Source: Spirochaetaceae bacterium (GTDB taxonomy: Bacteria > Spirochaetota > Spirochaetia > DSM-2461). Taken from it: a stretch of 64,000 nt of DNA. How positions within the stretch are numbered: the first letter of the stretch is position 1; every line of letters begins with the position of its first letter. A program made the position numbers and the translations under genes. The stretch covers positions 192,656 to 256,655 of the forward strand of contig JAOPTT010000006.1 in NCBI GenBank assembly GCA_051531975.1, written 5' to 3'. A model generated the notes under the pieces. It searched no databases, was not told the origin of the DNA, and saw nothing but the letters and a program-made list of their open reading frames with translations. Shown piece after piece: positions 1,967-64,000 of this stretch.

Positions 1967-2168
1967 ACTTAAATTGTAATGTTTTTTTATCTATATGTGA
2001 TAAATAAACTGATTAAGAATCCTAAAACCACTTATATAACAATGATCCAACTTAAAAACAATGAGAAGTATACAAATAATTCCTCAATAGAATAGATAAT
2101 ACTGGTTACAAAAAAGAGTATATTATAATTATTTTGACTACAAATAAAAATTATTATAGTATTTCAGT

Positions 2169-3731
2169 ATGATTAAAAAGGGACTTTACTATTTTGCCGT
2201 ATTATTATTCCTAGTTTCGTGCAATCAAGATCTTGATTCGACTATTGTTTCTAATTGGCAGGTCCTATACTCTCAAACAGAAAATATCCATGAAGTTTAT
2301 TCATTGGAAGAGTGGTTGGATATTGATATTGGAATACCAATAAGTCTTCCATACCCACAAAAGCACACATTTCAATATGTGTGGCTAAAGGGGAGCTTTA
2401 ATACACCTAAAGATTATACAAAATTATATGGAATTTCTATCTCAAAATTATCAATGGTTGATCGAGTGTATATAAATGGAGGGCTGATAGGGTATCTAAA
2501 TGAAGAAGAGGTTCACAATTTAGATAGTTCACGTAGTTATATCATCCCGACAGGAATTATTGATAAAGGGAAGAACGATGTTTATATCAGGGCAGGTGCT
2601 TATGATGAATGGGATATTGAAATTTCTAGATCTATACTGATTCAAGATGCAGAAAAGTTTAGAAGTATGAGAAAACAAAATCAACTCCTCTCTGAATTTC
2701 TACCTTTTTCAATACTAACTATTATCGTAGGTACGTTTTTTTCTTTTCTTTTTAAATCGGCTTATGAAAAATGGAATAAAGAGTACCTAATATTAGCTAT
2801 ACGATTAATAATTGTAATCTTATGTTATTTGACATTTTATTCACCCATTCCCATTTTTTCTATTAAAACAATTATTGCAATCTGGAAAATGGTGTTACCG
2901 TTATTTTTTATAACTATGATCATTTTATATCAGGAAATTTATAAAATTCATTTTGAAAAGCTTAATTTAACCATTATTCCATTTTTGGCTGGAATATCAA
3001 CAGTTGTATTCTTTTTAAGTATTAACAATATATATGAAGGTATATCTCATTTATTAGTAGGTCTAGCTATAATAGTTGCACTAATGTTCATTTTTTATAT
3101 ATTCAAAAAAATCCTTAAAAATAGGCAAAATGATTATAAATTTACTTTAGTTCTCTTTGATTCAGTAATAATTACTTTCAATATTATTATTGTTGCTATG
3201 TTTTTATTATTTAATATTACAGTAATAGACCCAAGCCTTCTGAGTATATTTAGTAGTTTGTTTTTGACAATATTATTTTCAATTTATTTTGCAAAAAGAG
3301 ATGGATTGCAAAAATTAAAAATGGAGAATCTATCTATTAGGTTAAATAAATCTGAAACAAAATCTGAGAATGTTCAAAAGTACAATATATCACCATCCTT
3401 GGAAAATAAACTAGAGAAAATCATTCTGTTTATCAGAGAAAATTATACATTCTCCATATCTAGGGAGGATCTTGCTGAAACGGTAGGTGTTAATCCCAAT
3501 TATCTTAGTTCACTATTTAATATATACACAGGAAAAAGAATTAATGAATATATAAATGACATTCGTTTGAAAAGAGCATCTGAATTATTGACTCTTCAAA
3601 ATGACTCAGTTACCGATGTAGCATTCTCATCGGGCTTTGAGAGTCTTACAACCTTTAATCGCTTGTTTAAGAAAAAATTCGATTGTACACCGAAAGACTA
3701 CAGTAATCGTCTTGAAAGTATAAAGAAGTAG
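2169..3731 (+). CDS. Membrane-anchored AraC-family regulator (extracytoplasmic jelly-roll-like domain + 7TM + AraC HTH)
   Basis: Lipobox-like LVSC, about 7 hydrophobic helices, and C-terminal AraC motifs (SREDLAETVGVNPNYLS; VTDVAFSSGFESLTTFNRLFKKKFDCTP). Confidence 0.88.
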   Translation: MIKKGLYYFAVLLFLVSCNQDLDSTIVSNWQVLYSQTENIHEVYSLEEWLDIDIGIPISLPYPQKHTFQYVWLKGSFNTPKDYTKLYGISISKLSMVDRVYINGGLIGYLNEEEVHNLDSSRSYIIPTGIIDKGKNDVYIRAGAYDEWDIEISRSILIQDAEKFRSMRKQNQLLSEFLPFSILTIIVGTFFSFLFKSAYEKWNKEYLILAIRLIIVILCYLTFYSPIPIFSIKTIIAIWKMVLPLFFITMIILYQEIYKIHFEKLNLTIIPFLAGISTVVFFLSINNIYEGISHLLVGLAIIVALMFIFYIFKKILKNRQNDYKFTLVLFDSVIITFNIIIVAMFLLFNITVIDPSLLSIFSSLFLTILFSIYFAKRDGLQKLKMENLSIRLNKSETKSENVQKYNISPSLENKLEKIILFIRENYTFSISREDLAETVGVNPNYLSSLFNIYTGKRINEYINDIRLKRASELLTLQNDSVTDVAFSSGFESLTTFNRLFKKKFDCTPKDYSNRLESIKK

Positions 3732-3821
3732 TAACCATTTATTCAAATTTGAGTTAATGATTAGCTAATAACTTATAAAAATCATAGATTTCTCCTAAAT
3801 AAAACATTTAAGGAGATTTTT

Positions 3822-4622
3822 ATGAATAAGAAAAATTGGATTTTGATATTCATCCCGATACTAATAATGACAACCATAGCTTCATTATTTAGTCTACTAA
3901 CTATGGACTTTTACTTTAGAGATTCTACAATTATTGCAGTAAAAAGTCATTATCTAGATTTGATCAACATTTGCATCGTAGTTCCATTAGGGATTGTAAT
4001 GTTTATCTTGGGTATGAAAAACCATTATTGGGCCAAACTATTCATAATGGGGATTATGGCATATTTGGCATTTATGTTTGGATTTAATTCTTTGAGTCTA
4101 TTTTTTAATGAGCTTTTTTTAATTTATGTTTCGCTTTTTAGCCTCAATATTTTTGGTATCATTCTAGGATATGAGGATGTTAAACAATCAGGGAATTATC
4201 TGGAAAATACTATTAAAATGAGAATTTCTGGTATATTTTTGGTGTTTTTTGCAATAACCGCTTATTCAGCATGGTTAATCGAAGTCATTTCATCAACTAT
4301 ATATGGCCTCATACCAGAAAGCATTGGAGGTATGAATCTACCGGTTAGTGTTGTTCATGTATTTGATATGGCATTTGCACTTCCAATTATTGTCTTCGGT
4401 GCAGTATTGCTTTTTAAAGGTAAAATATCAGGATTAATTATTTCATCCATAATGGTGGTCTTTGTATTTTTGGTTTGCATCAGTGTTTTTGGAATGGAAT
4501 TGGCTTTGCAATATCAGCATATGCCTATTGATGAGGGGAAACTCTACTCAATGTATTTATTAATTCCATTATGTATATTCCCACTGATAAATTTATTAAA
4601 AGCCACTTCTAAAAGATTTTAG
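3822..4622 (+). CDS. Polytopic membrane protein of unknown function
   Basis: 266-aa ORF with about 8 TM segments and an AGGAG RBS. Confidence 0.75.
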   Translation: MNKKNWILIFIPILIMTTIASLFSLLTMDFYFRDSTIIAVKSHYLDLINICIVVPLGIVMFILGMKNHYWAKLFIMGIMAYLAFMFGFNSLSLFFNELFLIYVSLFSLNIFGIILGYEDVKQSGNYLENTIKMRISGIFLVFFAITAYSAWLIEVISSTIYGLIPESIGGMNLPVSVVHVFDMAFALPIIVFGAVLLFKGKISGLIISSIMVVFVFLVCISVFGMELALQYQHMPIDEGKLYSMYLLIPLCIFPLINLLKATSKRF

Positions 4623-4731
4623 ACATTTTTTGGTAAGATCTCTTCAAGTGATGAAGTTCGAAACCTAAGCTGCAACACATCAAGAGAATTAATCATTAGG
4701 AATAGAGATAATTTTTTATAATTATTCTCAA

Positions 4732-5010
4732 ATGGATTTATATACTTCATAAAAAGTAAAAGATTTAGTTTTGGAAATGTTAGAGAAGAAGGTTACAAAG
4801 TTTATTATAAACTTAGATAAAGTTGTATATATTGATGAAATTGGAATTGGTGCATTAATATATATAACTCCTACTATTAAGAAAATTAATCTATAATTTT
4901 TGATTACAAATGTTCATAGATCAGTTAAAGAAGTTATCGAATTAACTAATCTAATGGGATATTTCCCTATGTCACCCACAGTTAATAATGCAATATCATC
5001 ATTAAAATAA
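4732..5010 (+). pseudogene. Degraded anti-sigma factor antagonist (STAS domain)
   Basis: In-frame translation MDLYTS*KVKDLVLEMLEKKVTKFIINLDKVVYIDEIGIGALIYITPTIKKINL*FLITNVHRSVKEVIELTNLMGYFPM... There are internal TAA stops at 4750 and 4894, the YIDSSG motif is eroded to YIDEIG, and the N-terminus is disrupted. Confidence 0.8.
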
Positions 5011-5139
5011 TTACATTATTTAAGATTATTTCACTATCTTTATCTCCCTTTTTTATAGTTTTTTAATGACTAAAATAAAAATTATTGAATTCCATTTGTT
5101 ATATTCTATACTTTATTGATATTATTCTGGGAGATTTCT

Positions 5140-7167
5140 ATGAGCAATGGCAATAAAACAATATCTTTAAACTCTATAGGTGGTAAGATCGTAATAATAT
5201 CCTCTATTATAGTGTTTTTTTCACTCTTATTATTATCAGCAATTTCAATTCCACAGATGAGTAATGCTATAGTTACAGAGGCTATGTCAAAACTTGTAGC
5301 TATGCAAAATAGTAAAGTTACAGCGCTTCATGATCTTTTAAATAGAACAGTCAACGATAGTAGTGTAATTGCCGACACCGTAGATATTAAAATGGCTGTA
5401 GATAATTTGATTACTTATCATAAGGAGATGGGAATATCCGCTACAGGAGATTATATTATAACAGGAGAGAGTGACGATCTAACACTTAAATATTCAGAAT
5501 TATATGCAAGTATTAATAAAAATGTTCAGAAATATAATGACATTTATAATTATTATGATGTTTTAATTGTATGTGTAAAACATGGACATGTTATGTATTC
5601 AAATGCCAGAGAGGCTGATCTGGGTTCAAATTTATCAGTTGGACAATATAAAGATAGTTCCCTAGGAAAACTCTGGAAAAAAGCTGTTACAGATAAAAAA
5701 ACTTCAATAGTTGACCTTGAATCCTACGAACCTTCTAATGGTGACCCTGCAATGTTTATTGGAAGTCCAGTATATGATGGGGAAGTAATGACTGCTCTAG
5801 TCGTTCTTCAGCCTAATAACAATTTGATTAATAAAATTATGACAAATTCAGCAGGAATGGGTGAGACTGGGGAGTCATACTGTGTTGGAGTTGATAATTT
5901 AATGCGTACTGAAAGTCGATTTTCAAAGCAAGGAGAGTCTACAATATTAAAAAGGTTTATAGATACTCCAGCCAGTCGAGTATTAGATATTGAAGTAAAA
6001 GATACAATTACAAATCAAATAGAGAACTCAAGTGGAGTTGAAGTACTATCAGCATATTCTCATGGAAGAATTGACGAGTTGTTTAATGCTGATTTTGACT
6101 GGGCTGTAATTGCAGAAATAAATAAATCTGAAATAATAAAACCAGTTAATAATTTAATTCGTGTGATTATTTTAATTGCTGTCATAATAATTATAATTGC
6201 AGTATTTATACTAATATTTGTATCAAAAACTATAACAACTCCAATAATCTTAGCAGTTGAAGTAGCAGAAAAGATATCTTCAGGTAATCTAGATGTTAAT
6301 ATTGAAAGTAAATATCTAAATAGAAAGGATGAGACAGGAGCCCTCTCAGTCTCTTTGCAGACAATGATAAAACAGTTAACCGAGGTCGTTGGAAGTGTGA
6401 TTACAGGTTCTGAACAGATGGCTACAGCTTCAAATCAGCTTTCAAACGGCAACCATGATCTGACTGTTAGAACAGAAGCTCAGGCCTCATCTCTACAAGA
6501 AACTTCAGCAGCTATAGAGCAGATGAACTCTTCAATTAGATCTAATGCAGATAATACAACAACTGCTGATCAGCTATCCCGGGATGCTCTAGTTAAGACC
6601 GAGGATGGTTCAAGAACGGTGCATTCTATGATAGATTCTATGAATGAAATTAGTACATCAAGTAATACCATTTCAGAAATTATTGATGTTATTAATAATA
6701 TAGCCTTCCAGACAAATCTTTTAGCACTAAATGCATCAATCGAAGCTGCAAGAGCTGGAGAACAAGGTAAAGGTTTTGCAGTCGTAGCTGTAGAGGTCAG
6801 AAAACTAGCAAAACGTTCAGATAAAGCAGCAACAGAGATATCCGAAATTATTAAAAATAGTAATAAAAAGGTTTCTGAAGGTTTGGATATGGCAAATGGT
6901 GCAGGAGATATGCTTAATGAGATTAATGGTGCAGTTAAAAAAGTAGCTGTATTAATTACAGAAATCTCAGCTTCCTCTCAGGAACAACTTACAAGTGTGG
7001 ATCAGATCGATAATACACTTTCTACCCTTGATGAAAATACTCAAAAAAATGCATCACTGGTTGAAGAAGCAGGTGCAGCTACTGAAGAGTTATCTACTCA
7101 AGCGGAAGAATTGTTAAACAAAATGAAATTTTTTAAGCTGTCTGAAGAGAAACATTTACTTACATAA
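5140..7167 (+). CDS. Methyl-accepting chemotaxis protein (Cache-like periplasmic domain, HAMP)
   Basis: Two TMs, HAMP (RKDETGAL) and the MA hairpin [33 protein letters not shown] 5140 follows a GGGAGA RBS; the ORF track starts at TTG 5116. Confidence 0.93.
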
Positions 7168-53365: not shown

Positions 53366-54676
53366 TTAAGAAATACTCATTATGGCTTTTGCCGGATCTA
53401 CTTTGGTTGCTCTGTTTACAGGTTTAAGACTACCAATCCAAACCAGAAATAGGATGATTAGTCCACTACTTAAAAATCTTGAAGGAACAAAAATAAGAGT
53501 AAGATGTCCTCGGTATAAAAACATTGAGAAGAATGTATGCCCTTCATCAAAGTTAATATTATGAATAGCCAGACCTAATACAAGCGCTATAATAACTCCC
53601 ATAATAACTCCTAATAATGCAATTATCTGCATTTCTACTATAAAAGATAACTTAACAGCACCACGTTGCATTCCTAAAGCCCGTAAAGTTCCAATCTCTT
53701 TTCTTCTCTCAAAAATCATCATCCGTAGAGTATTAGATATTCCTACAAGAATTATACCCATTAAAATAACCATTATTACTATGGATAATATATTTAGAAA
53801 TGCACCTATTACATATACGAAGGAGAAGGTCTCCTCTAAACTTGTTATCTGATAACGTATTCCTTCCCAATCCTGGGTTCTTAAACGTGCAAGGATTTCC
53901 TGACGTTCTCCTCTATCTTCAGGTCTCTCTATTACCGCAACATTTTTACTAAGGAGGTAATTGTAAAAATTACTTGCTACTTCTTCTGTTGACTCATTTT
54001 TATCTAAAAAGATATTTAATTCTGTAAAATCATTAATACTAATTCCTAGTATTTCATTAAGATAACTACGATGAACAAATGCAGCCATTGAACTAATTGT
54101 TCCAAGATCATCGGCAATAATACCCTGTATCACAAAGTTCCCAACATTGTTTATTCCTTGTAGAGTACGGGTTTTAAGCATTACAGAATCACCTGTTTTT
54201 AAACCTAGATTTTCAGATATCTCCTTTGAAAGTAGTATTCCAGATTTTAAATCCTCTGATAGATAGTTTCCATCTTCAAGAATTAGAAGGTCTCTTAAAC
54301 CTTCCTCCTTATCTGGGTCTATACCCATAACGTATTGCTGCTGAGCCTCACTACCATTAATAAAAGTTGCCATGGTAGTACTACGAAGATTTAAATGATC
54401 ATTCTCTGAAAAATATTCTCTTGTATCCTCTAGAATTGGATCTTTATCATCCAAACATGAAACAAGAGAGTCTCTTGATGAAAAACTTAAACCTCTAACT
54501 ACAACATCACCGGAAATCATCCCTGCTTGCTGATTTACAAAAGAGTCCATAATCCCATCTGCTAGAGACCCTACTAATATAATAATTGATAATCCAAAAG
54601 CGATAGCCCCTGCAAGTAACAGGCTTCGTCGTTTTTCTCTAATCACATTTTTTATTGCTACATGTAAATATCTCAT
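53366..54676 (-). CDS. ABC transporter permease, FtsX/LolCE/MacB-like
   Basis: AIKNVIREKRRSLL and NTLRMMIFERRKEIGTLRALG motifs. Confidence 0.88.
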   Translation of the reverse strand: MRYLHVAIKNVIREKRRSLLLAGAIAFGLSIIILVGSLADGIMDSFVNQQAGMISGDVVVRGLSFSSRDSLVSCLDDKDPILEDTREYFSENDHLNLRSTTMATFINGSEAQQQYVMGIDPDKEEGLRDLLILEDGNYLSEDLKSGILLSKEISENLGLKTGDSVMLKTRTLQGINNVGNFVIQGIIADDLGTISSMAAFVHRSYLNEILGISINDFTELNIFLDKNESTEEVASNFYNYLLSKNVAVIERPEDRGERQEILARLRTQDWEGIRYQITSLEETFSFVYVIGAFLNILSIVIMVILMGIILVGISNTLRMMIFERRKEIGTLRALGMQRGAVKLSFIVEMQIIALLGVIMGVIIALVLGLAIHNINFDEGHTFFSMFLYRGHLTLIFVPSRFLSSGLIILFLVWIGSLKPVNRATKVDPAKAIMSIS

Positions 54677-56512
54677 CTATTCCTCTCTCATCGCTTCTAC
54701 GGGTTGAATCTTCATTGCATAAAAGACCGGATATAAACTGGATAAAACCCCTACAACAAACATAAATAATAAGCTGAAACCAATAGTCCATGCCGATAGA
54801 CTAGGATTTATTGAATTCCCTCCTGCAATCATCTGTAAAAAAGAGCCATCTGCAGCTGGGATACCAATATTACCTAGAATTGTAATAACCAGGGATCCCA
54901 CAATCATACCTAACGTCCCAAAAATTAGACTGATAGTCATAGTTTCTGTAATAAAAAGATAGAAGATAAAACTCTTCTGTCCTCCAATAGCTCTTAACGT
55001 TCCGATCTCTCCAGTCCGTTCCATTACCGAAATCATTAATGTATTCATAATAATAATAATTACCACTATAAAAATGATTATTAGTGCAAAGTTCATCGAA
55101 GCCTGGATAGCTGTTGTTGTTGTTGACATTGGAGAGGCTGCATGCCACCACTCACTTACCATGTAGTCAGGGCCAGGTGAGAGGGCATATGGATATAACT
55201 CCTCTAAAATTAACCTATTTCTCCGGATTAACTCATAATCTTTCTGAGTTTTTTTAACCAAATTATTGGTAATTGAAGAGAAATGGATCTTTTTAAAAGC
55301 CTCTTTCTCATATAGCTCATCTTTATCTAAAAATGATGTAAAGATAGAAACAATAGTAGAAGATAGAGCATCTTCATCCATAATAGACAGTGAATCAGAT
55401 AAAGAGTTTTTTTCTTCTAAAGTTAACAGACCGGCGATATAGGCAAACTCAGGTGTATTGGGTTCTAGTAGTGTCTGAGCGATTTTTATCGGTTTTAGTA
55501 TATACTTTTCCTCAAATGTTGAGAAACTCTGTTTAAAATGATTTTCTAAATCTGCTCTAAAGGTTTTTACACTTGAATCATCACTATTTTTTAGTGAAAG
55601 TAGCAGCCACTGCCAGTCAAAATTATTTACTTTAGAGAGTTCATGACGGACACTCATATCTCCTAAAAGAGAATCTAAATTTGTTTCTACTTGGTCTGCA
55701 GTTGTACCAATCTCTATAGTTTCAGAAAAAAGATCATCCATTGAGTCATTAAAAAGCATCTCTTCTAATTCTGGAGGTGGAGGAGTCTGCTCCTGTTTTA
55801 CAACTATACCGTTTAGAACATTGAAATTCTGTTGGTCTATAAAACATGTTCTTGGCAACATGGGATACATATCCCCTTTAACATAATTATATTCAAAAAT
55901 TCCCCGAATAGGAACTTCTCTTATCCTAAATCCATTAGCTGAATATCCATTAAGCAGTAGACTATCTCCTGGGTGGACTTCAATATCCTTGTATTCCATA
56001 AGGTATTCAACTACAGCACTTGATAATACAATTCCCTCTTCTCCAGGCTCCAAAAACCGACCTTCGTGAAGAATAATTGTATCTTTTATATCAAAAATAG
56101 AAGTATAACTTTCTGGATCAACCGCCATTCCCATAATCCATAAATCAGGGCTTAACTCTCCCGTGTTTACCATGAGCATATTTGATGAAACAGTAGTAAA
56201 AACATCAACTTCTGGATGTGTCTTTAGAAATTCTAGTGTATTTTCTAGATCTGGAACTACAGGTACTGAAAGGTTCCCAATATTATTCCAGGTTCCAAAC
56301 AGAGAAAAGTCGAAATCAATATTTTTAAGCACTGCAATATCTCCGGTAACGGAATTACTGTAGGCTCTCTGTATTCCCTTACTTGTTGAATCCAGGAAGG
56401 AGTTTCCAAGTACCATTAAAAAAATACCTAAAAATATTAAACTACCAACTATCATAGTTTTAACTTTATGTGCAAATACATTTCGTATTGCTATTTTAAA
56501 TATGGCAAACAT
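54677..56512 (-). CDS. ABC transporter permease, FtsX/LolCE/MacB-like, enlarged periplasmic domain
   Basis: IAIRNVFAHKVKT, NTLMISVMERTGEIGTLRAIG and IQPVEAM motifs. Confidence 0.88.
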   Translation of the reverse strand: MFAIFKIAIRNVFAHKVKTMIVGSLIFLGIFLMVLGNSFLDSTSKGIQRAYSNSVTGDIAVLKNIDFDFSLFGTWNNIGNLSVPVVPDLENTLEFLKTHPEVDVFTTVSSNMLMVNTGELSPDLWIMGMAVDPESYTSIFDIKDTIILHEGRFLEPGEEGIVLSSAVVEYLMEYKDIEVHPGDSLLLNGYSANGFRIREVPIRGIFEYNYVKGDMYPMLPRTCFIDQQNFNVLNGIVVKQEQTPPPPELEEMLFNDSMDDLFSETIEIGTTADQVETNLDSLLGDMSVRHELSKVNNFDWQWLLLSLKNSDDSSVKTFRADLENHFKQSFSTFEEKYILKPIKIAQTLLEPNTPEFAYIAGLLTLEEKNSLSDSLSIMDEDALSSTIVSIFTSFLDKDELYEKEAFKKIHFSSITNNLVKKTQKDYELIRRNRLILEELYPYALSPGPDYMVSEWWHAASPMSTTTTAIQASMNFALIIIFIVVIIIIMNTLMISVMERTGEIGTLRAIGGQKSFIFYLFITETMTISLIFGTLGMIVGSLVITILGNIGIPAADGSFLQMIAGGNSINPSLSAWTIGFSLLFMFVVGVLSSLYPVFYAMKIQPVEAMREE

Positions 56513-56516
56513 AAAT

Positions 56517-57206
56517 CTATACTCCCACTTTGTCGACAGTTAAACCATCATGTAGATATATAACCTTTGATACCATATTTACAATCATGGGATCATGGGT
56601 CGAAAATAGAAAAGTAGTTTTTTCTCTCTGATTAATTTCCTGCATCAAACTGATAATTTTTTCACTTGTAGCAGAGTCAAGATTTGCTGTAGGTTCATCG
56701 GCCAGTATAATTTTAGGCTTTGTAACTAAAGCACGGGCAATAGCAACACGCTGCCGCTGACCACCTGATAGTTCACTAGGTTTATGCCTTTTTCTATCAG
56801 ATAATCCAACTTCTTCTATTATGTGTTCTATCCACTCTTTTTCTTCTTTCCTTGACTGTTCGCTTTTACCCAAGAGTAGCGGTAATTGTACATTTTCATA
56901 AATATTCAGTACAGGGATGAGATTAAATGACTGGAAAATAAACCCCACTGTTTTATGTCGGAGTGTTGTTAGATCACGATCATTTAATTCATTAATGTTA
57001 TGTCCATCTACAATTATTTCACCTTCCGTAGATCTATCTATACAGCCTATCATATTAAGCAGAGTTGATTTCCCGGAACCAGAAGGTCCTGCAATAGACA
57101 TAAAATCACCTGAATTAATTTCAAGATCGATTCCTCTTAATGCAGGCACAGTTACTTTCCCAAGAAGATAGTTCTTCTTAACATTATTTAGTTTTATAAC
57201 ACTCAT
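56517..57206 (-). CDS. ABC transporter ATP-binding protein (LolD/MacB-like)
   Basis: GPSGSGKST, LSGGQRQRVAIARAL and LADEPTANLD motifs. Confidence 0.93.
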   Translation of the reverse strand: MSVIKLNNVKKNYLLGKVTVPALRGIDLEINSGDFMSIAGPSGSGKSTLLNMIGCIDRSTEGEIIVDGHNINELNDRDLTTLRHKTVGFIFQSFNLIPVLNIYENVQLPLLLGKSEQSRKEEKEWIEHIIEEVGLSDRKRHKPSELSGGQRQRVAIARALVTKPKIILADEPTANLDSATSEKIISLMQEINQREKTTFLFSTHDPMIVNMVSKVIYLHDGLTVDKVGV

Positions 57207-57509: not shown

Positions 57510-58949
57510 ATGAACATTAAAGAAGTACTTAAGAACACTTTTAATATAGAAGATTTTAGAGGAAATCAGAAAGAAATTATCGAGAGATTATTAAATATTG
57601 ATAATGGACATAGTTTAGTACTCATGCCTACTGGTGGTGGTAAATCACTATGTTACCAACTGCCAGGACTCTGTTTTAAAGGTGGGACCCTTGTATTAAG
57701 TCCACTAATATCTCTGATGAAAGATCAGGTTGATAGTCTTAAAAAAAGAGGTATCAAAGCATCATATATAAATTCAACTGTACCGGCTAAGGATAGAATT
57801 AAAAGACTCGATGATTTTGTATATGGCAAAACTAAGTTTTTATATGTTACACCAGAGAGATTTAATAATGAAGATTTTAGATTAAAGATTAAAAGAGCGA
57901 ATATAGACCTTCTTGCAGTTGATGAAGCTCACTGTATTTCGACCTGGGGACATGATTTTAGACCTGAATACTCAAGAATATCTGAACTTATATCTCTACT
58001 TAAAATTCCAAGGGTGATAGCACTAACTGCAACTGCAACTATAGAAGTACAATCTGATATTATTTCTAGTTTAGGGTTTTCTGACACTGAGATGAAAATA
58101 TTTCATCAGGGTATTAATAGACCAAATTTAAAACTAGTTGCAGATGAGTTCTTTAGTGATTCTGATAAAATAGAAGAGATAAAAAGAATAAGTCACGACA
58201 TTCAAGGAAGTGGAATTGTCTATTTTTCCCTTATTAAGACTTTAAGTATATTCTCAGAGAAACTAGATACTTTAAAAATTCCTCATCTGATATATCATGG
58301 TAAATTAGACAATAGAGAGAGAAAAAAAGTACAAGATATATTTATGAAATCTGATAAACTAATTTTGGCAACAAATTCTTTTGGAATGGGAATTGATAAG
58401 TCTGATATTCGTTATGTTATACACGCTGAAATTCCAGGTAGTTTAGAATCTTATTATCAGGAGATTGGTAGGGCAGGACGTGATGGAAAACCCTCCCTAT
58501 GTAAAATGTTATATTCCCAGGACGATCTTACAATTCATATGGATTTTATAAAATGGTCTAATCCTGACCCAATCTTTCTTAAAAAACTTTATTTCTTACT
58601 TAAAAACCAGGAGACCAAGGTTCACGCTTTTGGTAGAGAGTATGTTGAAAATGAGCTTTTTTATAAAAATAGATTTGATTTCCGTCTAGATACAGGACTT
58701 AATCTTTTTGCAAGATACAATGTAACAAAGGGTGATTTACATAAAAAAAATATTAAAATTATAGCCGAAGGACTCTCTGAAAATTTACTGGATAATAACT
58801 TATACGAAGAGAAATTATTAAGAGATCAGAAGAAGCTTTTATCAATTGTTAATTATTTTAGAGATGAAAGATGTCGTAAAAAAAGTCTTGAATCATATTT
58901 TGGGTTTGATGATGAACCAAAATGTAATAATTGTGATAGATGTTGTTAA
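57510..58949 (+). CDS. recQ: ATP-dependent DNA helicase RecQ family (short form, no HRDC)
   Basis: MPTGGGKSLCYQ, VDEAHCISTWGHDFRP, YYQEIGRAGRDG, and a C-terminal Zn site CR...CNNCDRC. Confidence 0.9.
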   Translation: MNIKEVLKNTFNIEDFRGNQKEIIERLLNIDNGHSLVLMPTGGGKSLCYQLPGLCFKGGTLVLSPLISLMKDQVDSLKKRGIKASYINSTVPAKDRIKRLDDFVYGKTKFLYVTPERFNNEDFRLKIKRANIDLLAVDEAHCISTWGHDFRPEYSRISELISLLKIPRVIALTATATIEVQSDIISSLGFSDTEMKIFHQGINRPNLKLVADEFFSDSDKIEEIKRISHDIQGSGIVYFSLIKTLSIFSEKLDTLKIPHLIYHGKLDNRERKKVQDIFMKSDKLILATNSFGMGIDKSDIRYVIHAEIPGSLESYYQEIGRAGRDGKPSLCKMLYSQDDLTIHMDFIKWSNPDPIFLKKLYFLLKNQETKVHAFGREYVENELFYKNRFDFRLDTGLNLFARYNVTKGDLHKKNIKIIAEGLSENLLDNNLYEEKLLRDQKKLLSIVNYFRDERCRKKSLESYFGFDDEPKCNNCDRCC

Positions 58950-59142
58950 TAAAATAACAAACTCATTTATATAGGGGATAGAGCATAACCTTTGTATATT
59001 AAACCATTTGAATGAAATATCTACTCTAGATGAAAGTTGTAGTAATTAAAGAGATCAGTGCTATAATATTTGATCTAGTTAATACATTTATAAATACTAA
59101 GTATCATTTACAAAATTATAAAAAACAGCAGGAGTGGTTACT

Positions 59143-62100
59143 GTGGTTACAGAAGATATTGCAGAAAAGGATTCACTTAAACTAATAAGTACTATAGTGG
59201 AACTAACTTCTATAAATAGTCCTATGAATATAGTTCTACAGAAAGTTGTCGATGAGATAATGAGTTCCCTTAGTTTAACAGATATTCTATCGGTTCGACT
59301 AATAATCGATGGTGTAGAATATATGAACTCTGGATTTATTAAAACCTATTGCCTCGAGAAAATTATTCTAGATCTACCTGAGAACAATTCCGGAGTATTT
59401 GAAGTCTATTACGAAAAAAAATATGGTGAAAATGGTGATAGATGTTTTAATTGTCTTTCTATTATTGGAAACATACTTACTGGTTATATCTCAAAAAATA
59501 AGCTAGATAATCTCTACTTTAAGAATCATGAAAGAGTTAAAGGGATAAATAGTATTCAATTGACAAATTTGATATTAAAAAAACACAATACACTAAGCGA
59601 CTCACTTCAGGAGATCTGTAATCTTCTTCCAGAAGCATGGCAATTCCCCAAGTATACAGCAGCCCGTATTTTCTTTGATGAAAAAGTATTTGAAAGTAGC
59701 CGATTTAAAGAGACGACCTGGTCACTTAATAAAAGTTTTGAAACTCCAGATAACAAAAAAGTTGAAATTGAAGTATTTTATCTAAAAGAATTTCCAAAAG
59801 CAGATATTGGACCTTTTTTAAACGAAGAACAATCTCTACTAGATATTTTAGCCTCCATAATTTCTGGAACTTACTCCAATCGTTCCCTTCAGGAACTATT
59901 GGAACACAATACTGAGCGTTTAAAAGAATTAAGGGGTATTAATAGGACTTCTGAAATTCTTAAAAATAGTAGTTCTGTAGAAGAGTCCCTGGAAGAAGTT
60001 TGTAATATCTTACCAGAAGCATGGAAACATCCTGAAGATACTGTTGTAAGGATCAGTTATAACGATAAGATTTTTACAAGTGAAAATTTCAGGGAGAGTA
60101 TATGGGTACAACATCAGAGTTTTGAGTGTCCTGGAAATAAGAAGGGCGAAATAGAGGTCTTTTTACTAAAAGAGTATGCAGTAGAAGATGAAGGCCCTTT
60201 TTTAAAAGAAGAGAGAGACCTTCTAGTAAATCTTGCTCGTTTAATATCTGGTTCTGCAGGTAGTGATGTATTAAAAAAACTTATTTTTGAAAATAATGAA
60301 CGTCTTAAAGAGCTTAGAGCAATTAATATGACATCAAAAATTATCTCAGAATATAAACCTGTAGATCAAACAATGTTTGAAATTACTTCAATATTAAAGA
60401 TGTCCTGGCAGTATCCTGAGTTTACAGAGGTAAAAATCCATTATGAGGGCTGTAACTATACTTCAGAAGGTTTTAGAGAGACATCCTGGAATCAGAAAGA
60501 GAACTTTATAACAATTGATAATAATAAGGGGTATATTCAGGTTGTCTATCTTAAAGAATTTCCAACCTCTGACGAAGGACCCTTCCTAAGGGAGGAGAGA
60601 GACCTTCTAATTAACATTGGAAAACTGATAAGTGGATATTTTAATAATAATAAAGGACGGGATATTTTTAGAAAGAATGTCCATAAGCAAAGGCAGATAG
60701 AGAAGCCTGAAGAGTATAAAAAGATGTTTATGACTAATAAGAGACCTCTTCAGTTATTCTTTAATCAGCAAGTTATCGATAAATATATTTATATGGACAT
60801 GATGAAATATAAAGTTAAAGAGATTCTTTTTGTCGCAACATTTTACGATGCCTTTATACTTGAAAATGAAGACGGTTTTTTTGAACGTTTTATGGGTGAA
60901 ATATATCAATATAGCCTCTTCTCCTTACCTAGAATTACCGGGGTTACAACCTCAGAAGAAGCTCTTGAAATGTTAGATAACAAATCGTTTGATCTGGTTA
61001 TTTTAATGGCAGGTCTTGATAGGGAAGCTCCGGTTTTACTAAGCGAAAAGATAAAAGATAAAACTCCTTCTCTTCCTGTATACATTCTACTTAATCAGAA
61101 GAGTAATATTAAATACTTTGAAGCAAAAGTTACATCATCTAAAACATTGGACAATCTATTTTACTGGAATGGTGATTCTGAGATTCTGTTTTCTATTGTA
61201 AAATCCATAGAAGATAGAGCTAATGTGGCCAATGATACCCAAGTTGGGTTGGTTCGGGTTATTCTTATAGTTGAAGATTCTTGTCTCTATTATTCAAAAT
61301 ATCTACCAATGTTATATAGTATTGTCTTTGGTCAGGTTCAGAGACTTTTACCAGAAGTCGAGAAGAATGAACTAGATAAAATTTGTAAAATGAGATCTAG
61401 ACCCAAGGTTCTTTTGGCTAGGAATTATGAAGACGCAATGTATCTGTTTAACAAATATAAGGATTACCTATTATGTGTTATCTCGGATATTGAGTTTGAC
61501 CATGGAGGGCAACTAGATAAAAAAGCGGGTATAAATTTTATCAAGTATGTTAAATCACATATGGTCAAATTGCCTATTATTCTTCAATCTTCAAACGCTA
61601 GAAACAAGAAGAAAGCGAAAGATCTTGATGTTTTCTTCATAAATAAAAACTCAGATACTCTTTTAAACGATCTAAAAAAGTATCTAAACTCATATCTCGG
61701 GTTTGGTAACTTTATTTTTCAGGATAAAAATGGACAGAAGATTGCAGAGGCTCGAACTCTGAAGGAATTTGAAAAGCAACTTGCAGTTGTTCCTGACGAG
61801 ACACTTTATTTACATGCTATTGCAAATCAGTATTCTATTTGGCTGATGGCAAGAGGTGAAATAACTCTGGCCAAAACAATAAATCCAATGCGGATAGAAT
61901 CCTTGGATAACATATCACTAACTAGAACACAATTAATTAGTATCATAAAAGATTCTCAGGATGAAAAAAAGAAAGGTAAAGTTTTTCGTTTTGAAGAAGA
62001 TACTCTGTTTACTGAGCAAAATATAGTAACTTTTGCTGATGGATCTCTTGGAGGAAAAGGTAGAGGTTTGGCATTTATAAATACACTTATTTATAATTTT

Positions 62101-63708
62101 GATTTCTCTTCTATCTCTTCTGAAATTAATATCAGGACACCAAGGACTGCGATTATAGGTACCAAGGAGTTTGATTCTTTTATTAAAAAAAATAAACTCT
62201 ACAGAAAGTCTGTTGGAAAAGATAGAAGCTTTGATGAAATTAAACTTGCATTTCTTTCTGGGAAGCTCTCAAATGGACTTGAACATAAATTAGCAACATA
62301 TCTTGATCAGATTAAAAATCCAATTGCTGTACGATCTTCTAGTTTATCAGAAGACTCTTTTACCCAACCATTTGCTGGGGTTTTTCATACTTATATTCTC
62401 CCTAATACCTGTGAAGATAAGGCTCTTACCCTCGAAAAATTGAAAGATTCTGTAAAGCTTGTTTTTGCATCAGTTTTTTCCGACGAAGCACAGGAGTACT
62501 ACAAGGCCATTAATCACAGAATGGAAGGGGAAAAGATGGCTGTTGTATTACAAGAACTTGTAGGAAACCATTACGGCGATTATTATTACCCACATATTAG
62601 CGGAACAGCCTGTTCTTATAACTACTATCCCGTGGCTGATATGAAACCGGAAGAGGGATTCGCCATGACAGCTTTAGGCCTTGGTTCCTATGTCTCCGAT
62701 GGAATGTGTTCCTACCGTTTTTCACCAAAATATCCAAAGGTTGATATGTATACAAATAAAGATCTGATTAACAGTTCTCAGGTTAAATTTTATGCTGTAG
62801 ATTGTACTAAAAATAATATGAACTATGAAGTTGATGGAGAACTCGCATCTCTTGTACTGCTTAACATAAGTGAGGCTGAAAAACATGGATCTCTAAAACA
62901 CTGTGTTTCGGTTTATGATCAGCAGAATGATAGAATTGTTCCAGGACTTTCTGCGGCTGGACCAAGAATATTAAATTTTGCAAATATACTTAAATACGAT
63001 TATATCCCTTTGGCTAAAACTTTAGAAATTATTCTTAATACTATTAAAGAAGCATTTGGATCTCCAGTAGAAATTGAATTTGCTGTGGATCTTAATGAAG
63101 CAGAAAATGGATTACCAACGTTCTATCTTCTTCAAACAAAACCTATGGTTGAAAGCAGAGGGAGCATACACTTTGATCTTGAGCAATTTGGGAAGTCTGA
63201 AGCTCTTCTATACACAGAAACAAGTCTAGGTAATGGCGAAATAAAAGATATTTTTGATATTATATATGTTGATAAAGATGCATTTGATAAGTTAAAAACC
63301 CTGGAAATGGTAAAGGAGATTGAATACCTTAACCGACTTATGGTGGATCAAAAAAGGCCTTATATACTCATTGGTCCAGGTCGCTGGGGGACAAGGGATC
63401 AGTTTCTTGGAATACCAGTAAATTGGGCTCAGATTTCAAATGCAAAAATTATTGTGGAAATTAGCTTAGATAATTTTCCTTTGGATTCATCCTTAGGGTC
63501 ACACTTTTTCCATAATATTACATCTATGAATATTGGGTACTTTTCAGTTAATAACAAGAAAGAAGCAGAATTTCTTAATTGGGATAGATTATACAAGGAA
63601 GAACTTATTAATGAAACAAAATATTTTAAACATGTGCGCTTTAGGAAACCATTAAGAATTTTAATGGATGGCAAAGAAAAAAAATCTATAATTACCTGGA
63701 ATCTTTAG
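59143..63708 (+). CDS. PPDK/PEP-synthase-like ATP-grasp protein with N-terminal sensor-like repeats, two REC domains and a C-terminal His-swivel-like domain
   Basis: LGGKGRGL, AVRSSSLSEDS...FAG, MAVVLQE, VEIEFA and LLQTKP ATP-grasp motifs; REC motifs; SLGSHFF. GTG 59143 is 8 nt after AGGAG; the ORF track starts at 59134. Confidence 0.85.
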   Translation: MVTEDIAEKDSLKLISTIVELTSINSPMNIVLQKVVDEIMSSLSLTDILSVRLIIDGVEYMNSGFIKTYCLEKIILDLPENNSGVFEVYYEKKYGENGDRCFNCLSIIGNILTGYISKNKLDNLYFKNHERVKGINSIQLTNLILKKHNTLSDSLQEICNLLPEAWQFPKYTAARIFFDEKVFESSRFKETTWSLNKSFETPDNKKVEIEVFYLKEFPKADIGPFLNEEQSLLDILASIISGTYSNRSLQELLEHNTERLKELRGINRTSEILKNSSSVEESLEEVCNILPEAWKHPEDTVVRISYNDKIFTSENFRESIWVQHQSFECPGNKKGEIEVFLLKEYAVEDEGPFLKEERDLLVNLARLISGSAGSDVLKKLIFENNERLKELRAINMTSKIISEYKPVDQTMFEITSILKMSWQYPEFTEVKIHYEGCNYTSEGFRETSWNQKENFITIDNNKGYIQVVYLKEFPTSDEGPFLREERDLLINIGKLISGYFNNNKGRDIFRKNVHKQRQIEKPEEYKKMFMTNKRPLQLFFNQQVIDKYIYMDMMKYKVKEILFVATFYDAFILENEDGFFERFMGEIYQYSLFSLPRITGVTTSEEALEMLDNKSFDLVILMAGLDREAPVLLSEKIKDKTPSLPVYILLNQKSNIKYFEAKVTSSKTLDNLFYWNGDSEILFSIVKSIEDRANVANDTQVGLVRVILIVEDSCLYYSKYLPMLYSIVFGQVQRLLPEVEKNELDKICKMRSRPKVLLARNYEDAMYLFNKYKDYLLCVISDIEFDHGGQLDKKAGINFIKYVKSHMVKLPIILQSSNARNKKKAKDLDVFFINKNSDTLLNDLKKYLNSYLGFGNFIFQDKNGQKIAEARTLKEFEKQLAVVPDETLYLHAIANQYSIWLMARGEITLAKTINPMRIESLDNISLTRTQLISIIKDSQDEKKKGKVFRFEEDTLFTEQNIVTFADGSLGGKGRGLAFINTLIYNFDFSSISSEINIRTPRTAIIGTKEFDSFIKKNKLYRKSVGKDRSFDEIKLAFLSGKLSNGLEHKLATYLDQIKNPIAVRSSSLSEDSFTQPFAGVFHTYILPNTCEDKALTLEKLKDSVKLVFASVFSDEAQEYYKAINHRMEGEKMAVVLQELVGNHYGDYYYPHISGTACSYNYYPVADMKPEEGFAMTALGLGSYVSDGMCSYRFSPKYPKVDMYTNKDLINSSQVKFYAVDCTKNNMNYEVDGELASLVLLNISEAEKHGSLKHCVSVYDQQNDRIVPGLSAAGPRILNFANILKYDYIPLAKTLEIILNTIKEAFGSPVEIEFAVDLNEAENGLPTFYLLQTKPMVESRGSIHFDLEQFGKSEALLYTETSLGNGEIKDIFDIIYVDKDAFDKLKTLEMVKEIEYLNRLMVDQKRPYILIGPGRWGTRDQFLGIPVNWAQISNAKIIVEISLDNFPLDSSLGSHFFHNITSMNIGYFSVNNKKEAEFLNWDRLYKEELINETKYFKHVRFRKPLRILMDGKEKKSIITWNL
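59530..60681 (+). repeat. Three tandem 384-nt (128-aa) intragenic domain repeats
   Basis: ER(V/L)K starts at 59530, 59914 and 60298. Each unit carries ..W.(F/H/Y)P...F.E..W and EVF.LKE....GPFL.EE..LL-like motifs. Confidence 0.85.
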
Positions 63709-63710
63709 AA

Positions 63711-64000
63711 ATGGATTATATTAGAATTGGAATTTACAGTGAGCACAAACTTCTACAAGAAGGGATTTGCAGCTTAATTGAAAAAGTAGAAGGTCTTCAG
63801 ATCTGTCTTCAGGAAAATACTATAGGAAAACTATTAAAAACAATAAGACTTAGTCAGATTAATATTCTTATTTTACACCCCGTAGCTCTAGATCTCTCAG
63901 TTATGACCCTATTAGAACAATTAAGAAATAAGTACCCGAGGATACAAGTTCTTATACTCTCAGCAGTAGAGAATGAAGTGAATATTCTGAAAACAATAAA
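63711..64000 (+). CDS. NarL-like response regulator with atypical receiver (3'-partial)
   Basis: Manual translation MDYIRIGIYSEHKLLQEGICSLIEK...INILILHPV...KYPRIQVLILS...ILKTI aligns to the NarL REC pattern; starts 2 nt after the upstream stop. Confidence 0.75.
   Translation, partial: MDYIRIGIYSEHKLLQEGICSLIEKVEGLQICLQENTIGKLLKTIRLSQINILILHPVALDLSVMTLLEQLRNKYPRIQVLILSAVENEVNILKTI

Follow-up and report, generated by a model that had tools for sequence, protein, structure and literature searches.

A dikinase-type sensor protein and an aspartate-less regulator upstream of gdhA in a Spirochaetaceae bacterium: a putative control system for glutamate dehydrogenase

Genes and features of the locus

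The window analysed is a stretch of 64,000 nucleotides from the genome of a Spirochaetaceae bacterium (contig JAOPTT010000006.1, positions 192,656 to 256,655). It closes with a long ORF and the beginning of a regulator gene, which are followed on the contig by a palindrome and by gdhA, coding for glutamate dehydrogenase (GDH). The features are:

59134..63708, + strand: whole ORF, 1524 aa, GTG start, coding for repeats, pseudo-REC, REC, DUF5752-like linker, PPDK_N ATP-grasp and C-terminal His domain
59143..60693, + strand: four tandem sensor-like repeats of ~130 aa each (self-comparison by BLASTP)
60811..61218, + strand: pseudo-receiver REC1, residues ~560-695 (Pfam REC below cut-off; family profile against solved REC domains)
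61246..61698, + strand: receiver REC2, residues ~705-855 (AF2, structure comparison, Foldseek, pocket conservation)
61747..62037, + strand: DUF5752-like linker, residues 872-968, mostly helical in the AF2 model (PF19027)
62044..63153, + strand: PPDK_N ATP-grasp, residues 971-1340 (Pfam PF01326, E 1.8e-38, 133 bits against a cut-off of 27)
63148..63705, + strand: C-terminal domain with a swivelling beta/beta/alpha fold, residues 1339-1524, 186 aa (AF2, structure comparison, conservation)
63711..64000, + strand: start of the Asp-less REC-LuxR regulator (REC and GerE), which runs to window-equivalent position 64373 (contig 257028)
contig 257067-257083 (window-equivalent 64412-64428), beyond the window: palindrome TTAAGTGTTTCACTTAA (motif search)
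contig 257211-258563, beyond the window: gdhA, 450 aa (Pfam E 6.4e-95)

The original prediction, made from the letters alone, placed repeats, a degenerate REC, an intact REC, a PPDK_N ATP-grasp and a C-terminal His domain in this order within one ORF, and the analysis bears out that arrangement. In front of the catalytic module, the sensor and receiver domains take up some 970 residues. The same protein is 1521 aa long in a database gene call, so the start position is uncertain by three codons. Its closest database relatives are Spirochaetales proteins of 1513-1529 aa with 73-84% identity over residues 860-1524. Across the 1524 aa, Pfam gives no match at E <= 0.1 to HisKA or HATPase_c, to PEP-utilizers, or to a third, substrate-binding domain, either the PEP-utilizers_C TIM barrel or a rifampin-binding domain; the absence of a PEP/pyruvate barrel noted originally thus holds. 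The family is uncharacterised, the literature searched containing no characterised member, and each mechanistic step given below for the 1524-aa protein is one that we infer.

Sensor repeats and receiver domains

The repeat units at residues ~125-262, 255-390 and 383-520 show 36-48% identity (E 1e-32 to 1e-40 in BLASTP of segments against residues 1-560), and a fourth, diverged unit at residues 4-135 shows 20-23% (E 2e-10 to 6e-6). These sensor repeats have no Pfam match even at E <= 10. Clusters of the Atlas named after GAF appear first at rank 19 with a score of 0.90, to be taken as a lead only. PPDK_N is found in 113 of the 120 matches listed in the repeat search, the other seven being shorter proteins.

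REC1 is a degenerate receiver without Asp, as had been read from its DLVILM motif. This motif occupies residues 620-625 and brings Met625 to the acceptor position, while the acidic pair is replaced (FVATFYD), so that the domain lacks these elements of a phospho-acceptor pocket. Its relation to receivers is indicated by Pfam REC (E 1.8e-5 and 8.5e-4, under the gathering score) and by positions 44-163 of the family profile, the part covering REC1, which match solved REC domains (3hv2, E 6e-6). The family consensus at the REC1 acceptor motif is FDLVIxM.

REC2 is a true receiver with a CheY-like fold and an intact phospho-acceptor pocket, in agreement with its first assignment. The pocket is made of E714, D715, D785 (codon 61486-61488), S819 and K838, of which E714, D785, S819 and K838 are each at least 90% conserved among 82 aligned sequences. 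Helix 1 of REC2 is followed by an insertion, and Pfam REC alone matches the domain weakly (E 0.036). Residues 695-970 are modelled by AF2 with a pLDDT of 94.2; the REC2 part of this model superposes on receivers with Z 13.4-15.6 over 113-128 residues (1.8-3.5 A) and yields 96 Foldseek matches at E <= 0.001. The linker that follows is matched by PF19027 when scanned alone (E 3.2e-6, 27.1 bits against a cut-off of 23); the term DUF5752 was not found in the literature searched.

The catalytic module

The PPDK/PEP-synthase type of ATP-grasp that had been proposed is confirmed by the PPDK_N match (E value listed above), and the domain features the motifs GGKGRGL and RSSSLSED. Its best matches with the family profile are to rifampin phosphotransferase (RPH; 5hv6/5hv1, E 5.5e-12 to 2.4e-11), and PEP synthases are matched at E 8e-9 to 2e-6. 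Partial NCBIfam matches to PEP synthase, PigC, RedH and RPH all lie far under their cut-offs.

The C-terminal domain bears the motifs LIGPGRWGT and SLGSH1457FFHN, the stretch SLGSH1457FF corresponding to residues 1453-1459. His1457 is encoded by CAC at 63502-63504, and the chain ends 67 residues beyond it. This His is conserved in 97% of 75 sequences and in seven of seven distant paralogues. The check by structure prediction suggested originally, for a swivel fold and for the placement of the His, gives a swivelling beta/beta/alpha model at pLDDT 93.9 with His1457 at the amino terminus of a helix behind a strand and a loop, like the site of the T-S-H motif. In a wide structure search the model matches the PPDK carrier domain 2fm4 (Z 6.1), RPH 5hv1 residues 756-867 (Z 5.8), the pyruvate kinase C-terminal domain 2e28 (Z 5.8) and maize PPDK residues 373-512 (Z 5.7). 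Five of its ten best matches are PEP-utilizers-type domains (2fm4, 2e28, 5hv1, 1vbg, 2wqd). The top three of a second search are PPDK and RPH, led by 5lu4 and 5fbu at Z 5.8.

The fold and the near-invariant His agree with the claim that GSHFF holds the swivel His, but the Z scores reach only 5.7-6.1, barely above those of chaperonin apical and other domains of this fold class (Z 5.0-5.5), and neither PF00391 nor hhalign confirms homology. PF00391 matches seven other genes of the genome and not the 1524-aa ORF. Against 33 PEP-utilizers domains hhalign gives a probability of 1.4-1.5% (P 0.03-0.04, compared with 0.3-0.4 for two controls); its default alignment covers the last hairpin only, and the His falls on T-S-H only with the greedy setting. 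The C-terminal domain is probably a phosphohistidine carrier, an identity that rests on middling fold scores and on context.

Family distribution and linkage to gdhA

The family counts 948 representatives (clusters at 50% identity) at E <= 1e-30 from many phyla, and the best 150 representatives are mostly of ~980-1000 aa, that is, core only. The dominant conserved partner is gdhA: GDH is encoded in 30 of 80 relatives' loci, at most 1500 nt from the family gene in 28 of them and at most 300 nt in 20. Among loci having full 10-kb flanks it is present in 15 of 35; the 50 loci without GDH in the fetched DNA include many short contigs. The GDH-bearing loci are titled Bacteroidota, Spirochaetota, Cloacimonadota, Gemmatimonadales, Syntrophomonadaceae and Ignavibacteriaceae.

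The regulator occurs in 13 of the 80 loci, solely beside N-terminally extended forms (1141-1541 aa). When spirochaete relatives are compared with 1.5-kb flanks, the long-form orthologues have the regulator directly downstream in seven of seven cases and gdh next in six, the seventh contig ending there. Core-only spirochaete forms (38-45% identity) have no regulator (0/6) and an adjoining GDH gene in five of six. Gaps of ~40 nt to gdh suggest co-transcription. The survey proposed originally therefore finds the regulator linkage conserved for the N-terminally extended forms but not for the others.

In the genome studied here the TAG stop of the long ORF (63706-63708) and the regulator ATG at 63711 are separated by 2 nt. 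The product of 220 aa combines REC (E 7.2e-10, 39.5 bits) and GerE (E 5.6e-18) in Pfam and has His56 at the acceptor position; the atypical NarL-type regulator anticipated at this place is therefore present and lacks the acceptor Asp. By alignment of the protein with 13 orthologues (14 sequences), the acceptor position is not conserved, being H, S, A, L, K, V, N or E, which weakens the case for the phosphorelay proposed originally. We take this regulator to belong to the aspartate-less receiver (ALR) regulators of the NarL/LuxR class.

Inspection of the contig beyond position 64000, another check that had been suggested, finds the palindrome and then gdhA, missed in the original prediction, directly after the regulator. 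The gene starts 182 nt after the regulator and codes for the single 450-aa GDH of this 5.46-Mb genome. The palindrome has a 17-bp consensus, TTAnGTG-TTT-CACnTAA. Scanning 400 nt upstream of gdh locates GT[GA]WTTYAC at -81 to -155 in all 14 relatives' loci with the regulator and in this genome, versus 3 of 26 loci without it. If G is required at position 3 of this pattern, the counts become 13/14 loci with the regulator vs 0/26 without. The exact 17-mer pattern has two matches in its own genome, the second one within an ORF. Palindrome and regulator co-occur across two phyla; another factor could own the palindrome.

A putative control system for glutamate dehydrogenase

GDH connects carbon with nitrogen metabolism, and its control in anaerobes, such as Bacteroidota of gut and sediment or spirochaetes, is to our knowledge poorly understood. 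The giant sensor and the Asp-less regulator upstream of gdhA probably form an undescribed control system for this step of nitrogen assimilation. We favour with moderate confidence a role of the ORF product as a signal-gated phosphotransfer enzyme of the dikinase type within that system.

His1457 would autophosphorylate at the expense of ATP, in the manner of PpsA, RPH and VadK, under the control of the sensor repeats and of D785 phosphorylation by an unlinked donor. The signal perceived by the repeats may be of the 2-oxoglutarate or glutamine type, a guess from context. The phosphoryl group of His1457 would be passed to a protein and not to a metabolite. N-extended forms, including the present protein, would relay their state to the Asp-less regulator, via binding or phosphorylation at a non-canonical site, and the regulator would bind the palindrome and set gdhA transcription. 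The core-only forms of ~990 aa, often co-transcribed with gdh and devoid of the regulator, would probably act on GDH itself or on its immediate metabolism.

A bolder version of this control system, possible but doubtful, is that a widespread ATP-driven protein-histidine kinase system of dikinase fold is the missing GDH controller in anaerobes (Bacteroidota, Spirochaetota, Cloacimonadota and others). Proteins would then receive the phosphate of phospho-His1457: GDH from core-only forms, and from long forms the Asp-less LuxR regulator, whose invariant pocket His12 is a possible site and from which the signal would reach the gdhA operator. If true, His-based phosphorelays would come in three kinds, the dikinase-fold system joining two-component systems and the PTS. 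Reversible inactivation of GDH in vivo was reportedly described long ago in Bacteroides fragilis, and a dikinase-fold GDH controller might account for it.

Gene adjacency cannot tell control of GDH from a shared metabolic role, and almost all characterised enzymes combining an ATP-grasp with a swivel His work on small molecules, which counts against the proposed control system. The protein might be a small-molecule dikinase or ligase of 2-oxoglutarate/glutamate metabolism, in which His1457 serves a metabolite bound by the DUF5752-like linker, a paralogous subunit or a partner enzyme, like in HpeHI or in PigC and RedH, with REC and sensors only tuning activity. PpsA, PPDK, RPH, HpeHI and PigC/RedH all act on small molecules, and the partial NCBIfam matches are to such enzymes. 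The neighbourhoods are rich in metabolic enzymes of one node: beside GDH (30 loci) there are 2-oxoacid:ferredoxin oxidoreductase (11-12 loci), GltD-like/molybdopterin and NuoE/F-like oxidoreductases (8-13) and Asp/Glu racemase (10). Tandem paralogues, found in 19 of the 80 loci, and the ~40-nt gaps to gdh also fit such an enzyme. We nevertheless judge it unlikely: Pfam recognises no substrate-binding domain, four sensor repeats and two receiver-type domains are a heavy signalling load, and a dedicated transcription factor and a putative gdhA operator accompany the long form. Moreover, some paralogues end with a nucleotidyltransferase domain, and domains of this type modify proteins in nitrogen control.

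A self-contained phosphorelay, along the lines of the original prediction, is also conceivable, in which phosphate flows from the ATP-grasp to His1457 and on to Asp785, in cis or within a dimer, phospho-REC2 then acting on the Asp-less regulator or another partner; histidine kinase and receiver would be united in one chain on a dikinase fold. Receivers take phosphate from phospho-His donors, and swivel His domains of the PTS hand it to protein residues. The conserved pocket and canonical fold of REC2 agree with such a relay. No histidine kinase that might serve as D785 donor is found among the 16 neighbour clusters present in at least six of the 80 loci, and the LytS-type kinase encoded 2 kb downstream is paired with a LytTR protein. 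However, seven distant paralogues (26-30% identity) match the family profile only from position ~395 and thus lack both REC domains, yet they keep the ATP-grasp and the G[ST]HFF His, one of them as a stand-alone module of 564 aa, and GDH adjoins in three of six loci holding them. A receiver Asp, offered in the original prediction as acceptor beside a partner protein, is therefore unlikely to be the general one in cis. When a REC precedes an enzymatic domain in the chain, it usually serves as an input and not as an acceptor, and a relay of this kind leaves no output for the core-only forms, which lack the regulator. We regard it as quite improbable.

Very doubtful, too, is that the C-terminal domain is no phosphocarrier, the ATP-grasp being a direct kinase or ligase and the swivelling fold a common one that is merely shared, with the conserved His and GPGRWG loop serving to bind substrate or partner or as catalytic base: phosphohistidine domains are not separable by Z score from DRTGG (Z 6.4) or from chaperonin apical, nicastrin and aconitase domains (Z 5.0-5.5), Foldseek returns nothing for the model at E <= 0.001, PF00391 and hhalign are silent on homology, and the domain is ~60 residues longer than PEP-utilizers with invariant motifs of its own, but it directly follows a PPDK_N ATP-grasp whose only known chemistry employs such a carrier, PPDK and RPH lead the second structure search, and the His is placed like that of T-S-H.

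Comparison with known systems

The signal-gated phosphotransfer enzyme favoured here resembles RPH (5hv1, 5fbs/5fbu), PEP synthase and PPDK in its ATP-grasp sequence, and RPH has its His domain at the end of the chain, where the putative one lies here. It differs from the three by having neither the PEP/pyruvate TIM barrel nor a rifampin-binding domain, by GSHFF in place of T-S-H in a longer, putative His domain that PF00391 misses, and by its long sensor and receiver extension in front.

Enzyme I-Ntr (PtsP) of the nitrogen PTS is a swivel-His enzyme fused to a GAF sensor; it hands phosphate on to proteins and signals the glutamine/2-oxoglutarate state. Enzyme I-Ntr draws its phosphate from PEP in a TIM barrel rather than from ATP in an ATP-grasp, and it has no receiver domains. 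EIN-Ntr is among the structural matches of the C-terminal domain (5t12, Z 4.4; 5t1o, Z 5.5). The regulator shares with ALR regulators of the NarL/LuxR class a REC fold and a GerE helix-turn-helix without acceptor Asp, but it is here coupled to a dikinase-like sensor enzyme and a putative gdhA operator.

HpeHI is described as a two-component small-molecule dikinase with an RPH-type ATP-grasp and the swivel His on a separate module, demonstrating that dikinase chemistry can be split and recombined (PMC12167813). It differs in being a catabolic enzyme without signalling domains and in the domain by which HpeH binds its substrates, phenolic ketones (PMC12167813).

For a regulatory His kinase built from a dikinase fold, as envisaged in the original prediction, the literature offers a precedent: VadK (Rv1127c) from Mycobacterium tuberculosis is a regulatory kinase derived from PPDK that autophosphorylates on His422 (PMC13400623). 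According to that paper, VadK is a truncated PPDK relative of ~50 kDa with ATP-binding and phospho-His domains and no PEP/pyruvate domain, its catalytic His was placed by overlay of a predicted model on solved PPDK structures, and it interacts with metabolic enzymes rather than making PEP, being tied to the methylcitrate cycle (PMC13400623). The protein studied here agrees with VadK at the fold level in architecture, but its putative His domain is not recognisable as a PEP-utilizers domain with PF00391. VadK differs by the absence of REC and sensor domains and by its link to the methylcitrate cycle instead of GDH, and the sections consulted describe no regulator or operator for it. Should the module prove to be a protein kinase that autophosphorylates on His, what VadK exemplifies in a single actinobacterial lineage would extend to a major class of signalling proteins equipped with sensors, receivers, a transcription factor and an operator of their own.

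Domain organization of the protein

The feature singled out by the original prediction, a dikinase-type ATP-grasp protein carrying receivers and encoded next to an atypical regulator, is real, and every sequence element listed for it is found in the open reading frame (ORF) at the residue assigned to it.

Window features and domains of the 1524-aa protein
53366-57206, minus strand: ABC transporter set of the MacB/FtsX type in divergent orientation to recQ, with an ATPase gene and two permease genes (FtsX, MacB_PCD)
57510-58949, plus strand: RecQ-family helicase (DEAD, Helicase_C, RecQ_Zn_bind), 184 nt upstream of the big ORF
59134-63708, plus strand: big ORF, one reading frame of 1524 aa starting at GTG
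Residues 4-135: diverged fourth repeat copy (self-comparison)
Residues 125-262, 255-390 and 383-520: N-terminal repeats, 36-48% mutual identity (self-comparison)
Residues ~560-695: pseudo-receiver REC1, Met625 in the acceptor position, acidic pair absent
Residues ~705-855: receiver REC2 (model of residues 695-970, pLDDT 94.2)
Residues 872-968: helical DUF5752-like linker (PF19027, E 3.2e-6, over the cut-off, scanned alone)
Residues 971-1340: PPDK_N ATP-grasp (Pfam, E 1.8e-38)
Residues 1339-1524: C-terminal domain (AF2 model, 71-row alignment, pLDDT 93.9)

The identical protein in the database gene call has 1521 aa while the longest ORF from GTG 59134 has 1524, so that the start codon is ambiguous by three codons (window 59134-59145). 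The closest relatives in a database protein search, those named coming from Thiospirochaeta, Oceanispirochaeta and Spirochaetales MAGs, have 1513-1529 aa and 73-84% identity across residues 860-1524, which makes the host a spirochaete. The upstream recQ gives no sign of a functional link to the big ORF.

The repeats have no Pfam match, even at E <= 10. GAF-named clusters appear in Protein Atlas from rank 19 down only (score 0.90), and a GAF-like nature of the repeats is a lead only. Among the matches listed for one repeat PPDK_N is present in 113 of 120, the remaining seven being shorter proteins (463-1044 aa). Elsewhere in this genome a repeat is matched only once and weakly (E 5.5e-8, 31% identity over 80 aa), in a GAF-PAS-PAS-HisKA sensor kinase (locus L134, G000:C12:83363-86596, ORF from 970), at about residues 178-255, an unannotated stretch between GAF and PAS.

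REC1 stays under the Pfam REC threshold; over this stretch the family profile aligns with REC domains of known structure (3hv2, E 6e-6). The REC2 model aligns with receiver domains at Z 13.4-15.6 and gives 96 Foldseek hits at E <= 0.001; its E714, D785, S819 and K838 have a conservation of at least 90% (n=82 sequences). Nothing on DUF5752 was found in the literature searched, which took in few subscription journals. Among solved chains, the ATP-grasp part of the family profile matches rifampin phosphotransferase (RPH) best (E 5.5e-12), followed by PEP synthases. The Pfam scan of the big ORF gave no match to HisKA, HATPase_c or PEP-utilizers_C, the last of which agrees with the predicted lack of a PEP-binding barrel.

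The C-terminal histidine domain

LIGPGRWG(S/T) and GSH1457FFHN are near-invariant in the C-terminal domain, with the His present in 97% of 75 sequences. His1457 had been proposed as the phosphorylated His of a swivel domain, and structure prediction upholds the fold class and the placement of this residue. In the AF2 model it (His119 of the model) sits at a helix N-terminus, preceded by a strand and a loop and followed by a strand. The T-S-H site of PEP-utilizers domains has the same topology, its His lying at a helix N-terminus after a strand and loop.

A structure search of 48,161 chains returned DRTGG 2ioj (Z 6.4), the PPDK carrier domain 2fm4 (Z 6.1), the pyruvate kinase C-terminal domain 2e28 (Z 5.8), RPH 5hv1 residues 756-867 (Z 5.8), maize PPDK residues 373-512 (Z 5.7) and Enzyme I 2wqd (Z 5.1), values below 8 being ones that, as the tool warns, may reflect a mere common arrangement. 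PPDK 5lu4 and RPH 5fbu head a second search (Z 5.8). Competing matches to chaperonin apical, nicastrin and aconitase domains reach Z 5.0-5.5; we take these to be of the same swivelling beta/beta/alpha fold class.

Homology to phosphohistidine domains is not confirmed by further comparisons: structural similarity to them stays at Z 6.1 or less, and PF00391 leaves the C-terminal domain unmatched, though seven other genes of this genome match it. Foldseek gave no hit at E <= 0.001 for this domain (best PPDK 2r82, E 0.024), and solved dikinases align to the family profile over the ATP-grasp alone, in one stretch each. Compared by hhalign with 33 PEP-utilizers domains taken from this genome and relatives, the domain reaches a probability of 1.4-1.5% and P 0.03-0.04, a reversed and an unrelated control having P 0.3-0.4; the default alignment covers only the terminal 'I-DG--G' hairpin, and SH falls on T-S-H under the greedy setting only. 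It is improbable that the domain is not a phosphocarrier. It is probably a swivel-type carrier domain, in view of its modelled fold class and conserved His, its place directly behind a PPDK_N ATP-grasp and the enrichment of phosphohistidine domains atop both structure lists. A fucosyltransferase-like identity suggested by Protein Atlas (0.85-0.90) reflects about 120 shared features only and was treated as chance.

Distribution and gene neighbourhoods of the family

The family sharing this ATP-grasp/His module is uncharacterised and widespread. At E <= 0.001 it counts at least 7998 members among 8000 candidates scored, and 948 representatives at E <= 1e-30 in a 50% identity library. Most of the best 150 of these 948 have about 980-1000 aa and the organization REC-REC-linker-ATP-grasp-His, without repeats. 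No publication on the family was found in the literature searched, which took in few subscription journals.

Neighbours of the family gene in the best 80 loci of 591 stretches encoding a relative (35 loci with full 10-kb flanks)
Glutamate dehydrogenase (GDH): 30/80, within 1500 nt in 28 and within 300 nt in 20; 15/35 with full flanks
Tandem paralogues of the family gene: 19/80
Regulator: 13/80; 6/35 with full flanks
GltD-like/molybdopterin oxidoreductase: 13/80
FabD: 13/80
2-oxoacid:ferredoxin oxidoreductase: 11-12/80
Asp/Glu racemase: 10/80
NuoE-like and NuoF-like subunits: 8/80 each

GDH was not found in the fetched DNA of 50 of the 80 loci, many of these 50 being short contigs. Neighbour clusters present in at least six loci include no histidine kinase. 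The regulator occurs beside forms of 1141-1541 aa only and never beside those of ~990 aa.

In 23 of 41 spirochaete genomes a match runs from query residue 1-6 to at least 656 of a 665-aa query. Thirteen loci of spirochaete relatives were compared over 1.5-kb flanks. In all seven long-form orthologues the next gene downstream is the regulator, and in six gdh comes after it; the contig of the seventh ends. The six core-only forms (38-45% identity) lack an adjoining regulator, and five adjoin GDH. The predicted linkage to the regulator thus holds for the spirochaete long forms and for extended forms among the 80 loci but not for ~990-aa proteins.

Distant paralogues (26-30% identity), which comprise proteins of 760-1054 aa and one stand-alone 564-aa module, align with the family profile no earlier than position ~395 and hence lack both REC domains. 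GPGRWG and G[ST]HFF are kept in all seven. GDH adjoins those of loci L135, L137 and L139, the last from another spirochaete (G009:C35:65500-73000).

Genes of locus L139
6167-7447, minus strand: GDH gene
4405-6096, minus strand: 564-aa ATP-grasp/His module
1248-4409, minus strand: 1054-aa paralogue with a C-terminal nucleotidyltransferase domain (NTP_transf_2)

The ATP-grasp/His module, and not the receiver, is therefore what accompanies GDH. The NTP_transf_2 domain hints that protein nucleotidylation might operate within the same system.

The regulator and a candidate operator upstream of gdhA

The window corresponds to G000:C6:192656-256655. Beyond its position 64000 lie the rest of the regulator gene, a palindrome and gdhA.

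Features downstream of the big ORF
Start 2 nt past the big-ORF stop: regulator, 220 aa (REC E 7.2e-10, GerE E 5.6e-18)
G000:C6:257067-257083 (window-equivalent 64412-64428; L001 2202-2218): perfect 17-bp palindrome TTAAGTGTTTCACTTAA (TTAAGTG-TTT-CACTTAA), ~412 nt beyond the window end and 128 nt upstream of gdhA
Start 182 nt beyond the regulator: gdhA, a 450-aa GDH gene that is single in this genome (5.46 Mb, 29 contigs)
L002 3223-7211 (G000:C6, ~3-7 kb beyond the window): consecutive genes for a LytS-type histidine kinase (5TMR-LYT, His_kinase, HATPase_c), a LytTR response regulator and a CstA-family transporter

Downstream of gdhA come a hydrolase, the LytS/LytTR pair and cstA, which appear to stand apart from it as a unit of their own; the last three are probably an ordinary two-component unit. 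A second, partial ELFV_dehydrog match (E 3.8e-37; G000:C2:300227-300724, minus strand) lies within a 963-aa open frame that may encode a large or fused dehydrogenase.

The regulator has His56 at the acceptor-Asp position, which across 14 aligned sequences (this genome's and 13 orthologues) is H, S, A, L, K, V, N or E; in 11 sequences neither H12 nor S84 varies. A complex prediction of enzyme residues 695-1524 (82 rows) with regulator REC residues 1-130 (11 rows), run without controls, scored 0.00 and 0.01, the mark being 0.32, which speaks neither for nor against binding.

A ~40-bp block with invariant GTGTTTCAC recurs in the spacers between regulator and gdh of this genome and six spirochaete orthologues, and the palindrome lies inside it. 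The conserved GAATTACnGAAT part of the block is found just upstream of the palindrome. Bacteroidota loci having both regulator and gdh carry the palindrome element in their spacers, in either orientation. Scanning 400 nt upstream of gdh in all loci whose GDH match begins within the first 25 residues revealed GT[GA]WTTYAC in 14/14 loci with the regulator (-81 to -155) versus 3/26 without; G is fixed at motif position 3 in 13/14 versus 0/26. The exact 17-mer pattern occurs twice in this genome, the second time within an ORF. The simplest reading would be that a dimeric helix-turn-helix regulator binds the palindrome and controls gdhA.

Three Bacteroidales loci (L036, L037 and L049) have a motif-like 9-mer (GTAAATCAC or GTAAAACAC) at -133 to -155 of gdh and no regulator gene in the fetched 10-kb flanks; either the 9-mers are due to chance or the gene for the regulator may lie in another part of the genome. 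The further 17-mer matches inspected, exact or with one mismatch (L141, L143, L145), are within ORFs, and the 17-mer with one mismatch is not enriched over control (9 vs 13). Autoregulation of the big gene was rejected: GTGWTTYAC is at chance level in the window (3 vs 1.6 expected) and absent from the spacer before this gene. A sigma-70-like site, TTCATA-17-TATCAT, 19 nt past the palindrome, was discarded since such sites are at chance density there (7 vs 6.4 expected).

Proposed mechanism

From the conserved anatomy, the linkage to GDH and the way regulator and palindrome occur together, a composite mechanism can be drawn to which we give an even chance: a gated ATP-grasp would phosphorylate His1457, whose phosphate would pass to a protein in a chain controlling GDH. 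Gating would be exerted by the repeats and by phosphorylation of D785 from an unlinked donor, and His1457 phosphorylation is envisaged by analogy with PpsA, RPH and VadK. In long forms the signal would travel through the Asp-less regulator to gdhA transcription. In core-only forms, often encoded ~40-120 nt from gdh, the module would act on GDH or its immediate metabolism.

A protein is favoured as acceptor because the substrate domain is absent; a small-molecule dikinase or ligase at the 2-oxoglutarate/glutamate node, the foremost alternative, is rather unlikely. The original interpretation is upheld in part: its architecture is borne out, and the relay it proposed from His to a receiver Asp in cis is weakened by the REC-less paralogues and appears still less plausible.

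Comparison with known systems

EI-Ntr is a functional analogue of the big protein. Compared with the dikinases PpsA, PPDK and RPH, the protein resembles their first two-thirds but the third, substrate-binding domain is missing, and the His domain resembles theirs in fold without matching PF00391; it is not filed as a member of any of them. Literature on GDH inactivation in Bacteroides, searched by title and abstract, yielded nothing on the family. HpeHI shows that an ATP-grasp need not share a polypeptide with its swivel module (PMC12167813). VadK, a PPDK-derived regulatory His kinase with an ATP-binding and a His domain, autophosphorylates at His422 and interacts with methylcitrate-cycle enzymes; it is the published precedent for a kinase of this kind (PMC13400623). 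The big protein looks like part of a new control circuit for GDH.
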